The notes under the pieces were generated by a model. That model saw only the letters and a program-made list of their open reading frames with translations. It was not told where the DNA came from and did no database searches. Source: an uncultured Bacilli bacterium (GTDB taxonomy: Bacteria; Bacillota_I; Bacilli_A; RF39; UBA660). From it: a DNA stretch of 64,000 bases. The stretch is taken from positions 293,498 through 357,497 of the forward strand of contig OZ006970.1 in assembly GCA_963931065.1 (NCBI GenBank). Reading direction: 5' to 3'. The position numbers and the translations under genes are program-made. Positions 32,311 through 34,517 of the stretch are shown here, in pieces. Positions within the stretch are counted from its first letter, which is position 1. Each line of letters begins with the position of its first letter.

Positions 32311-32505
32311 CTATACTAAATTAGCAAGTTGCTTTTTAGTAAGACCTGTTAATTCACTAATTAAAGATATATCCATATTTTTAGCAAGCATTGATTTTGC
32401 AATAGATTTTTCTTTTTCTTTAGCGCCTTTTTTCTCCCCTTCTGCTCTTAGACTATTCATCATCTTTTCTCTTTCTTCGGCTTCATCATAAAGTGATAAT
32501 GTCAA
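32311..32505 (-). pseudogene. Remnant (64 codons, TTG start) of an Rpn-family PD-(D/E)XK gene: only the C-terminal HTH-like tail remains.
   Basis: IAKSMLAKNMDISLISELTGLTKKQLANL parallels the C-terminus of the Rpn-like gene at 21117..21926. It is flanked upstream by perfect 15-bp inverted repeats. Confidence 0.4.
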
Positions 32506-32638
32506 GATAAAAATGTAGTTTTTGACTAAAATAATTATGCAGAAAAAACTACATTTTTATATTAGCATAATCTAATCACTAGAATCAGACGAATCAACTA
32601 ATATATTTATTTAAACTTATTATAGCCAAATTTAATTA

Positions 32639-32676
32639 GTCAGTAATATAGGAAATACATTTCCTATATTACTGAC
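32639..32676. repeat. Perfect 16-bp inverted repeat (GTCAGTAATATAGGAA-ATACAT-TTCCTATATTACTGAC) 2 nt beyond the stop of the VR-bearing gene.
   Basis: Direct reading. It could be a terminator or a DGR-type structural element. Confidence 0.6.
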
Positions 32677-32678
32677 AG

Positions 32679-34517
32679 CTAACTACCTAAAGTCAGGATA
32701 AACGGATCAGATTTAGTTCCTGTACCTGAGGTTATCTCAACATTAGATTTTAGATTTATTGACGGCCGGACACCGTCCGCGTAGGTCGAAAAATTGTCGA
32801 ACGCGTTACCAACGTTAACCACGTGACGCACGTTAGACACACTATATGATGTTAAGGTCCAATAATTTGTATTATTACCATATCTATCGAATTGTCCTGC
32901 CATTAATTCTCCCATTCGAAGTAACCCTACTTTTGCATTTGTACTTGTAGCATATCCTGACATATTAGTATCTGTATATTTTGCTAGTTTATATGATGCA
33001 CCACTTCCTACTGTTCCTAAATACCAAGTTATACTATCTTCTATCATATCACTATATGTACTATCTACATAACTATTTAAATATTCTCCATTTAAGAATG
33101 TACCTATTGTTGTACTACTTGAATAATTAACACTACTATTACTATCAAATGCACTTGTTATAAAGGTACCAGAACTCTTTAATGGTTCGGCACTGGTTAT
33201 CTTTGTTAATCCTTTTGTTTCATGGCTTACTATTCTATATAGATTATTTTCATCATTTCCAAATCTTATATATTCCCCACTATACCTGCTTGACAACAAT
33301 GTTCCTGAAAGATTAGTATCATTATCTCCGTTTAAGCGATAAGGGTTATCTATTGTTCCATCACCATCTACAATTTTAACGCTAGATTTTAGATTTATTG
33401 ATGGCCGGACACCGTAAGCGTAGGTCGAAGAAGAGTAGTTCGCGCGACCATCGTAGCCCACGTAACGCACTTGAAACGCATTATCTGGTGTTAAGGTCCA
33501 CCAATAAAGTCCATTATTTAAATAACCATTACTATATGTTGTTCCTGTATAACTAGATTGATATTCATACATATTAAGTAATCCTACTGCATCGGTTACT
33601 GTGGTAGTTCCATTTGGTCTTGTTATACTTCCTAAACTTGTGGCATCTAATGTTGCATCCCATTTATCATTTGTTACGATAAAGTTCTCATAATCTCTTA
33701 AATTACCTAAGAAACCATCTACTGTTGTATCATTTAACCAATCTTCCATATAACTGCCTGCAAAGGCTGTATTACCCTCTGCATTATATGGTATGGCACT
33801 TATATTCCACTGGGTTACTAATTTTGTTGTCTTTGCCTCATTATTAACAGAATTAACAGACACTGCTCTCCATAATTTACCACTATACCAAATATAGTTA
33901 TTTGGATCTGTTCCTGTTATAAATGTATCTTCTCCATCATAGTATGTATCTCCATTTGTTAAGTTTTCTATTATAACATCTGAAGCTAATGTGCTAACTT
34001 CTTCAAATAAATGCCCATTACTTGGTAAACTTAAATCATTATAATCTAGCCCTACTCCTACTCCTAATGTAATTGTTACACTACTACTAGAGTTATTTGC
34101 AACTCTTATCGTATAAACATTACTTGAACCTACTGTTCCACTTTTCTCTAAATTAGTTCCTACTTCACTAGGAGGCGTATTAAATCCCGCTCCACTTTTA
34201 TATCCTGCTTCTACACCACTAGGCAAACTTCCTTCATAATAAAAGTTAAATCTTGCTTTTCTATTATTAGAATTAGATAAAGTTACTGTAAACTCTTTTG
34301 TCTCATTCGCTCCTACTATTAATTTATTACTCTTTTCTCCATCTACAGTTAAATCATATACTAAATTACCGGTTTCAATTGTTATGGCATTACCCTTTTC
34401 TTTTGATACTGTAAACATTGCATAAGAAAAATAGCCTCCTAATATTAATAATGTTATTATAACCATTACTATCATATAAATTTTACTAAAGCTTGTTTCT
34501 AATAATAATCTTTTCAT
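32679..34517 (-). CDS. Membrane-anchored surface protein with two C-type-lectin-like (DUF1566/FGE-like) domains. Each ends in a hypervariable block like a DGR variable region.
   Basis: 612 aa with an N-terminal TM helix. The motifs YWWTLT...STYAYGVRPSINLKS (domain 1) and YWTLT...STYADGVRPSINLKS (at the extreme C-terminus) are encoded by atypically GC-rich, A-poor codons. Confidence 0.75.
   Translation of the reverse strand: MKRLLLETSFSKIYMIVMVIITLLILGGYFSYAMFTVSKEKGNAITIETGNLVYDLTVDGEKSNKLIVGANETKEFTVTLSNSNNRKARFNFYYEGSLPSGVEAGYKSGAGFNTPPSEVGTNLEKSGTVGSSNVYTIRVANNSSSSVTITLGVGVGLDYNDLSLPSNGHLFEEVSTLASDVIIENLTNGDTYYDGEDTFITGTDPNNYIWYSGKLWRAVSVNSVNNEAKTTKLVTQWNISAIPYNAEGNTAFAGSYMEDWLNDTTVDGFLGNLRDYENFIVTNDKWDATLDATSLGSITRPNGTTTVTDAVGLLNMYEYQSSYTGTTYSNGYLNNGLYWWTLTPDNAFQVRYVGYDGRANYSSSTYAYGVRPSINLKSSVKIVDGDGTIDNPYRLNGDNDTNLSGTLLSSRYSGEYIRFGNDENNLYRIVSHETKGLTKITSAEPLKSSGTFITSAFDSNSSVNYSSSTTIGTFLNGEYLNSYVDSTYSDMIEDSITWYLGTVGSGASYKLAKYTDTNMSGYATSTNAKVGLLRMGELMAGQFDRYGNNTNYWTLTSYSVSNVRHVVNVGNAFDNFSTYADGVRPSINLKSNVEITSGTGTKSDPFILTLGS
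32744..32831 (-). other. Candidate DGR variable region 2 (VR-like block at the 3' end of the target gene).
   Basis: Nearly identical 88-bp scaffold to VR1. It differs at 12 codons, six of them NNC/NNC pairs (CAC/TAC, AAC/TAC, AAC/CGC, TTC/AAC, GAC/TAC, GAC/TAC). It is followed by the stop codon and a 16-bp perfect hairpin. Confidence 0.55.
33383..33470 (-). other. Candidate DGR variable region 1 (VR-like block inside the target gene).
   Basis: An 88-bp block. Its invariant codons avoid A (GTG CGT GTG GGC GGT CGC GCG TCG GGT GTC CGG). Its variable codons are of NNC type (TAC GGC TAC CGC AAC TAC). It ends in a GC-rich IMH-like GGTGTCCGGCC. Confidence 0.55.

Follow-up and report, generated by a model that had tools for sequence, protein, structure and literature searches.

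MSL is among the accessory genes of diversity-generating retroelements (DGRs) (PMC5758913), and DUF6273 is a C-lectin-like domain of DGR targets (PMC10743442). In the DGR of BPP-1, a hairpin/cruciform downstream of the variable region (VR) is required for retrohoming (Guo et al. 2011, PMC3240598). RpnS antitoxins start at an internal Met and vary by 4-residue repeats, with separate rpnS genes such as ypaA on record (PMC10400941), and they act specifically only where the repeat numbers match (Zhong et al. 2023, PMC10400941). Here we examine a locus holding pieces of both kinds of system, in a 64-kb stretch (the window) of contig OZ006970.1 from low-GC Bacilli, the kin of which are 'uncultured Bacilli' BRZ metagenome-assembled genomes and Candidatus Onthousia. 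We consider it likely that the interval between a DGR target gene and clpB represents an eroded junction in a chromosomal DGR cassette of the MSL type, of which a hairpin and an orphan rpnS-type gene survive, and that the VRs of the target gene are either fossils or remote targets. Positions are those of the window; where contig coordinates are given, they refer to ena:ERZ21564551:s19725.ctg025008c, a metagenome-assembled contig of 1.52 Mb. The labels L003 to L032 denote individual loci fetched for comparison.

Results

A DGR target gene without its core

On the minus strand the 612-aa target gene, with its stop codon TAG at 32679-32681, is followed by a gap of 173 nt, an open reading frame (ORF) of 64 codons, about 100 nt with the clpB promoter, and clpB. 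The interval between target gene and clpB comes to 370 bases. The features, including a remnant of the template repeat (TR) spacer, are as follows.

32679..34517, minus strand: DGR target gene of 612 aa, an ORF with a signal-anchor N-terminus and two DUF6273 modules, with a VR at the end of each
33383..33500, minus strand: VR1, internal, recognised by its match to VR2, a GC peak of 0.54 and the codon-position bias of its mismatches
32744..32861, minus strand: VR2, C-terminal, recognised by its match to VR1 and to the TR fragment of L003
32639..32676, minus strand: the cassette hairpin (hairpin 1), a perfect palindrome of 18+2+18
32608..32638, minus strand: spacer remnant with TATAAT at 32619-32624, recognised by alignment and BLAST to L003, L006 and L012
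32573..32607, no strand assigned: window-specific filler at the left deletion junction, without similarity to any fetched locus
32495..32572, no strand assigned: second inverted repeat, with perfect 17-nt arms (32507-32523 and 32544-32560) and a 20-nt loop
32311..32505, minus strand: small rpnS-type (HTH_Rpn_C) ORF, 5'-eroded, of 64 codons from a TTG or 50 aa from the ATG at 32463
30110..32209, minus strand: clpB, the right-hand flank, an ORF whose protein is 100% identical in strains with the alternative allele

The premise of the initial annotation, that the upstream gene bears VRs, holds. Its protein matches DUF6273 in Pfam (E = 6.8e-9), and VR1 and VR2 are 80.5% identical, both GC-rich and sharply bounded, with mismatches mostly at codon positions 1-2. 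Relative to the TR fragment of L003, mismatches concentrate at template adenines in both VR2 (seven of eight, P = 0.005) and VR1 (eight of ten, P = 0.007). The homology between VR2 and the TR stops near 32764, at GGTGTCCGGCC, and both VRs retain a conserved GC-rich end followed by TCAATAAATCTAAAATCT. Orthologues or paralogues of the target with varied VRs occur in L003, L006, L008, L010, L012 and L028. The 612-aa gene is a genuine DGR target. In relatives, DGR targets are linked to type IV pilin-like genes (L008:1189-3057, L012:5717-7953, L014:4648-6650 and L028:2505-3674); the L008 target has a prepilin-type N-terminus, and those of L012 and L014 come immediately after N_methyl genes, which suggests that pilus-tip or pseudopilin proteins are diversified there.

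The rest of the DGR was not found in the window or in about 77 kb of the contig. Word-7 BLAST with both VRs found no third VR/TR copy in the window, and tblastn against the window gave a best E of 1.5 for a related DGR reverse transcriptase (RT) and E of 0.28 or worse for the MSL and Avd of relatives. No RVT_1 was present among the genes called at contig positions 1300693-1377708 (about 77 kb, reaching about 6 kb past each window end), and a search for homologues of a related RT was uninformative, none of the best 120 of its 5923 matches lying on the source contig. A degenerate VR/TR pattern scanned against GTDB returned VRs alone, in the genomes of four related species, and no TR; it had no match in viral contigs, nor had an exact 33-nt TR string in a metagenome contig collection. 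Three loci with a TR, L028-L030, turned up when the spacer motif GGCTATAATTAGTTTAAATA was used for scanning. In the interval itself, Rfam 15 yielded sub-threshold hairpin look-alikes alone (E of 0.27 or worse) and no match at the gathering threshold, and a tRNA scan found none. Of two sequences looked up in the attempt to locate an RT in the source genome, one matched a multi-copy IS3 insertion sequence (IS) transposase on another contig and the other was absent from the records.

Since TR and core have been lost at this interval, the two VRs must be fossils, unless a core at some other genomic site still serves them as remote targets. The gene could still be diversified in trans by a core more than 40 kb away in the 1.52-Mb genome, with the hairpin kept for retrohoming; in non-phage lineages, DGRs do reach targets at distances above 100 kb (PMC5758913). 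VR1 is hypervariable between the window and L003, two strains that share the same ClpB: it shows 12 differences per 100 nt, whereas the flanks, otherwise about 99% identical, show 0-1 per 50 nt. The hairpin is also retained, with covariation, even where the TR is gone, and both VRs have kept their conserved ends. VR2, however, is nearly frozen between the same strains, with about three differences, two of which are C-to-T changes at non-adenine sites, and the identical 612-aa protein is present on 6 contigs, which fits frozen VRs. The VRs without a TR in the GTDB scan, the different damage suffered by each of the TR copies of L003, L006, L012 and L028, and the lack of an RT in about 77 kb of contig also speak against a live remote target, which we regard as unlikely.

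The corresponding position in related genomes

The initial annotation had read the interval as the position of a DGR core now gone, and had proposed a comparison of synteny with related genomes. That comparison bears the reading out: the homologous interval holds a truncated TR in L003 and L006, TR, MSL and Avd in L029, and TR and MSL in L012. Copies of the TR stand at the homologous position in L028 and L030 as well. Taken together, the relatives would give a clade cassette consisting of a target (VR1, VR2), its stop codon, a long AT-rich hairpin, a spacer of about 60 nt, the TR, about 230 nt of conserved non-coding RNA, MSL, Avd and RT.

The locus L029 runs through target, hairpin, spacer, full TR, about 230 nt of conserved non-coding sequence and MSL-like and Avd-like ORFs to the contig end. 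These two ORFs have no Pfam match and were assigned by BLASTP to proteins of L021 and L023 alone; MSL homologues adjoin bAvd and RVT_1 in L020-L024. In L012, the hairpin and spacer behind a pilin-adjacent paralogous target lead to a TR that is longer and carries a 12-nt deletion. Non-coding sequence of about 290 nt separates this TR from the gene for a 127-aa MutS-domain-I protein (MSL), after which come an rpn of full length (298 aa) and, as a distinct gene, an rpnS-type copy of 83 aa. Another type of target in L015 is followed by the hairpin, MSL and then rpn, and in L011 a pseudogenised target directly precedes pseudogenised rpn and rpnS. A trio of tyrosine recombinases takes the place of MSL, Avd and RT in L030, and in L028, which has no hairpin, another paralogue of the target comes next after the TR.

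The alternative allele comes from conspecific strains (L003 and L004), in which ClpB is identical and the clpB-side DNA 99.8% identical. After the target stop, L003 has the hairpin, the spacer and TCTAACGTGCGTAACGTGAACAACAATGGTAACGCGAA, with AAC at every variable codon (variable codons being those that differ among VRs in at least 5 genomes); we read TCTAACGTGCGTAACGTGAACAACAATGGTAACGCGAA as a template repeat broken after about 45 nt. Beyond the break there is a perfect palindrome of 38 nt, and after it come a tyrosine recombinase that is truncated, the beginning of another recombinase and a fragment resembling IS21. The sister species represented by L006 (about 84% identity, syntenic on the CtpB side) has the same hairpin, spacer and TR fragment, and there the recombinase/integrase is intact (416 aa). 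Tandem tyrosine recombinases thus recur at the DGR core position, as the trio (L030:949-3140), as remnants in L003 (1277-3064) and in L006 (24-1274), and the segment in L003 and L006, opened by the TR-cutting 38-nt palindrome, is far more alike between the two species than its flanks, which suggests a mobile element. A separate observation concerns derived codons: where other TRs have AAC, the TR and adjacent VR2 share CTC in L006 (1440-1470, 1690-1740) and AGC in L012 (7790-7800, 8055-8065), which hints at VR-TR gene conversion or at mutagenesis of the TR itself.

Homology between the window and L003 is lost at about 32608, comes back at the second inverted repeat (79%), is lost again over the body of the small ORF, and is back at 100% over the final 29 nt of that ORF and into clpB. 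On the core side, the survivors in the window would be hairpin 1 (32639-32676) and the 31 nt with which the spacer begins, and the losses would comprise the remaining spacer, the TR and the accessory and RT genes.

The two inverted repeats

Hairpin 1 had been described as a perfect 16-bp hairpin 2 nt after the target stop. Its position and spacing are as described, and the arms are longer, with 18 perfect nt on either side of a 2-nt centre. No other perfect inverted repeat of the window is as long, in a comparison where the longest arm from 30 first-order Markov simulations of the window was 14 nt. As RNA it would form 17 bp with a 4-nt loop, UGUA (dG -24.2 kcal/mol, z = -7.7); the stem is AT-rich, with G-C at 4 of 17 pairs, and lies 67-87 nt from the VR end. 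Compensated variants occur at the same position in L003 (which carries a compensated A-to-C change), L006 and L012. Among the 4 loci, both partners are altered in 4 of the 17 pairs; pairing is kept in 98.5% of cells, against 25-47% when the partner strand is slid. L029 has an equivalent hairpin at the same site, with an unrelated stem sequence.

The initial annotation had taken this hairpin for a mark of rearrangement. The comparison contradicts that: hairpin 1 is a conserved, covarying cassette element, and it must be native rather than a scar because it is found in TR-bearing loci and in the intact-looking cassette of L029. A rho-independent terminator was also considered. The stem is stable, but a U-tract follows it in no lineage (the tail is UAAUUAAAUUUGG, and UAAAUUAAAAAGG in L029) and the terminator scan did not call it, and the terminator reading is rejected on account of the U-tract missing in every lineage. 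Instead, hairpin 1 may be a target-recognition or boundary structure of the DGR.

The 31 nt of spacer retained beside the hairpin end where homology to the TR-bearing loci stops, at about 32598-32608. The TATAAT in this remnant (32619-32624) might serve as a promoter. In relatives, a conserved non-coding stretch of about 230 nt lies behind the TR and closes, ahead of MSL, with an intrinsic terminator (ACGTCAAAATCGCTTGACG and a T run) (L012:8048-8400, L029:365-660, L030:575-850). Given the TATAAT in the spacer and the intrinsic terminator ahead of MSL (L012, L029), a separately transcribed TR RNA, from a gene starting in the spacer, is plausible.

The second inverted repeat had been reported as 15 bp long and overlapping the start of the small ORF. 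It exists and does overlap, the TTG start (32503-32505) lying inside its extended arm; the length was underestimated, the perfect arms being of 17 nt and extending to 29 nt at 86% complementarity (32495-32523 and 32544-32572). This repeat ties for the second-longest perfect repeat in the window and would be stable as RNA (dG -20.8 kcal/mol, z = -3.8). It is 79% identical to L003:3281-3360 and to L004, where it adjoins an IS21-like/recombinase remnant, and besides these no other copy was found in the window or the fetched loci. In the window it marks the junction at which rpnS homology begins. Two identities were rejected: a miniature inverted-repeat transposable element or IS end, the sole homologue being that in L003/L004, and a flank derived from the rpn promoter region of L011, to which the match is weak (32 nt, 3 gaps) and poorer than that to L003. 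A residual TR was also sought in the filler (32560-32607), where local alignments to four TRs were no better than shuffles.

The small rpnS-type gene

As the initial annotation had stated, the small ORF encodes the C-terminal, helix-turn-helix-like tail of an Rpn protein alone. The 64-aa form matches positions 212-272 of the 273 in the Rpn-family profile TIGR01784 (E = 1.9e-6), the 50-aa ATG version called in the source assembly carries PF27070 HTH_Rpn_C, and a profile of ORF homologues matches the RpnA-S crystal chain 7TH0_A (E = 2.4e-4). An exact look-up did not find the 64-aa form on record, since the assembly calls the 50-aa version. No N-terminal PD-(D/E)XK nuclease domain was found, the space between the ORF and the target stop codon being 173 nt alone, and no full-length rpn adjoins the ORF in the window.

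That the ORF is an rpn gene stripped of its N-terminus, as had been supposed, does not agree with its homologues. All 48 found in the database are of 50-104 aa with HTH_Rpn_C only; they begin at the internal Met of full-length Rpn and differ by 4-residue GIKK/GIKQ repeats. In L012, moreover, the stand-alone 83-aa gene matches the ORF at 63% identity, more than the C-terminal part of the rpn there does (55%). Its DNA homology to rpnS genes begins at about 32494, so that about 20 codons, the start codon and the partner rpn are missing. We conclude that it is a 5'-eroded stand-alone rpnS-type gene without its partner rpn.

An alternative is that the interval holds ordinary signals: hairpin 1 would terminate the target gene, the second hairpin would be a terminator or operator, and the ORF an expressed orphan antitoxin kept to neutralise other Rpn toxins, such as the product of a second Rpn-like ORF in the window (21279-21926, 215 aa), the frame of which starts within the nuclease core. 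Both hairpins are stable, the 50-aa frame is unbroken and recurs without change on 8 contigs, and stand-alone rpnS is expressed and functional in E. coli (rpnE-ypaA; PMC10400941). Yet hairpin 1 fails as a terminator on the grounds given above, and the ORF has neither the conserved N-terminal 20 or so residues nor the ATG of its 83-aa homologues. RpnS, moreover, needs a matching repeat number (PMC10400941), and identity between the ORF region and the C-terminal end of the 215-aa Rpn is only about 30%. The alternative allele (L003/L004) keeps only the last 29 nt of the ORF (32311-32339), 100% shared, with clpB unchanged. We therefore rate a functional antitoxin framed by ordinary signals as rather unlikely. 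At the site orthologous to 21279-21926, L003 has two tandem C-terminal Rpn fragments of 82 and 96 aa (L003:12229-12828), which look like a duplication of the RpnS-coding part.

Rpn genes beside DGR cassettes

Rpn-like genes lie about 0.2-2.2 kb from DGR targets at L006:5617-6504, L010:5209-6085, L005:1793-2668, L011:9287-10279, L012:9088-10252, L015:2561-3202 and L023:1688-2617. Elsewhere in the window their density is about one per 60 kb, and the excess beside DGRs is partly ascertainment bias.

This adjacency raises the question of whether an Rpn nuclease, perhaps cutting palindromes or cruciforms, directly deleted the DGR core. Rpn proteins are recombination-promoting DNA endonucleases that have been proposed to create the downstream small-gene copies (PMC10400941), in L012 and L015 the rpn-rpnS pair takes up the place of Avd and RT, and the proximity of Rpn-like genes to DGR targets recurs in several independent contexts. 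Against this, no sequence signature of Rpn action is known or seen, and hairpin 1 is older than the deletion. Tyrosine recombinase elements lie behind the other core losses in the clade (L003, L006, L030), and L011-L013, with their adjacent Rpn genes, were retrieved through Rpn homology. Rpn genes are also enriched generally in variable and defence regions (PMC10400941), so the adjacency may merely reflect shared hot spots. Deletion by Rpn itself is in our view improbable.

A bolder proposal is that rpn-rpnS modules are specifically drawn to DGR cassettes, replacing Avd-RT (L012, L015) or flanking the target (L006, L010, L011, L023), and that the window is the end-state of a recurrent interaction rather than of random decay. 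We hold this to be highly doubtful. If it were so, one possible reason is that an Rpn nuclease recognises the long cassette hairpin/cruciform or DGR cDNA intermediates; another is that Rpn-driven recombination copies target and TR modules to new loci, fusing new N-termini (pilin-linked, signal-anchored) to them.

Other features of the window

The clpB promoter and its CIRCE element are intact at 32237-32278. The promoter is a perfect sigma-70 type (TTGACA-17-TATAAT, minus strand) overlapped by a CIRCE-like inverted repeat, TTAGCACTT-N9-GAGTGCTAA (32252-32278), which suggests control of clpB by HrcA. An IS66-family transposase gene (26259-27866, minus strand) lies within a 1.7-kb insertion (26200-27904) that is missing from the conspecific L003 and L004. 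At 51259-51289 and 52528-52564, 1.3 kb apart, a related pair of palindromes (AATGCACAATATTTT...AAAATATTGTGCATT) look like operator sites of one regulator. Beside smpB, positions 52700-60300 (L032) encode a Mob_Pre relaxase, the rve and IstB pair of an IS21 and, at 58330-60282, a large serine recombinase, as would be expected of an integrated mobile element.

Discussion

The state of the window probably derives by deletion from one like that of L012, with TR, MSL, rpn and rpnS. In the history that we favour as the most economical, an rpn-rpnS module would first have taken the place of Avd and RT in an ancestral copy of the cassette, as suggested by rpn-rpnS in L012 and rpn in L015. Later deletions would then have taken the TR, MSL, rpn and the 5' end of rpnS. 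The second inverted repeat, which is also present in the alternative allele beside the recombinase/IS remnants, would mark the deletion junction.

Several observations weigh against this history. The complete proposed ancestor, with TR, MSL, Avd, RT and rpn-rpnS together, is found in no single relative, and L029 ends inside Avd, its downstream RT being taken from L020-L024. Comparison of L003 with L006 gives 98% identity for the segment with the TR fragment and recombinase and about 84% for its flanks; the segment may therefore have moved horizontally, blurring which allele is ancestral. Hairpin 1 is absent from L028, although the spacer and TR are kept there, and the second repeat lacks an assigned function. 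Finally, 8 of the 12 differences in VR1 between the window and L003 fall at inferred template adenines, as assigned from the TR consensus, and these 12 differences hint at recent diversification and thus at a working core somewhere.

If the cassette has decayed as we propose, the locus documents the death of a chromosomal DGR, with independent lesions at one cassette position in the clade (recombinase truncation, rpn-rpnS replacement and plain deletion), in which the diversified surface-protein gene and the cassette hairpin outlast the core. A VR-like gene that has no RT in its vicinity can be a fossil, which annotators should bear in mind. The comparison also defines the layout of the little-studied MSL-type DGR in gut Bacilli, with the TR behind the target after a long AT-rich hairpin and apparently as a separate RNA gene, and the recurrent adjacency of Rpn genes and cassettes is a testable lead on the natural substrates of Rpn nucleases. 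The interest of the locus is modest, raised slightly by that adjacency and by the unusual long, AT-rich, covarying hairpin.

Comparison with known systems

With regard to its hairpin, the locus resembles BPP-1 in having an inverted repeat just 3' of the VR, the structure of which is conserved through compensatory changes. It differs in its stem, which is of 17-18 bp and AT-rich rather than 7-10 bp and GC-rich, in its loop (UGUA as opposed to the consensus GRNA) and in its distance from the VR (67-87 nt as opposed to 4-34 bp; PMC3240598), and L028 has no cassette hairpin. Remote DGR targets, for example those of Treponema (PMC5758913), are likewise VR-bearing genes without an adjacent core. Here, by contrast, sister alleles prove that a TR once adjoined the gene in the window, and no TR/RT partner has so far been located in its genome.

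The small ORF compares with RpnS and with ypaA, downstream of rpnE in E. coli (PMC10400941; 7TH0), in consisting of the C-terminal three-helix/HTH domain alone. Its relatives in L012 and L013 follow the same plan of a full-length rpn and then a separate small copy (pseudogenes in L011), and its homologues vary by the same GIKK/GIKQ 4-residue repeats. Unlike these, the ORF in the window is without a partner rpn, the first 20 or so codons, a start codon and a repeat unit, and the likeness is one of sequence.

The closest described system is the MSL-containing DGR (Architecture D; Wu et al. 2018, PMC5758913), which shares with this locus a C-type-lectin-like target ending in a VR, adenine-specific differences between VR and TR and, in relatives, a small MutS-domain-I protein beside bAvd and RVT_1. 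It differs in that the window holds the target and hairpin, and TR, MSL, Avd and RT were not found there; in this clade, moreover, the TR lies directly behind the target, before MSL, and a single gene carries two VRs. The interval is thus a case of ordinary genome decay with one suggestive twist, a decayed member of two known kinds, the DGR cassette and the rpn-rpnS module.

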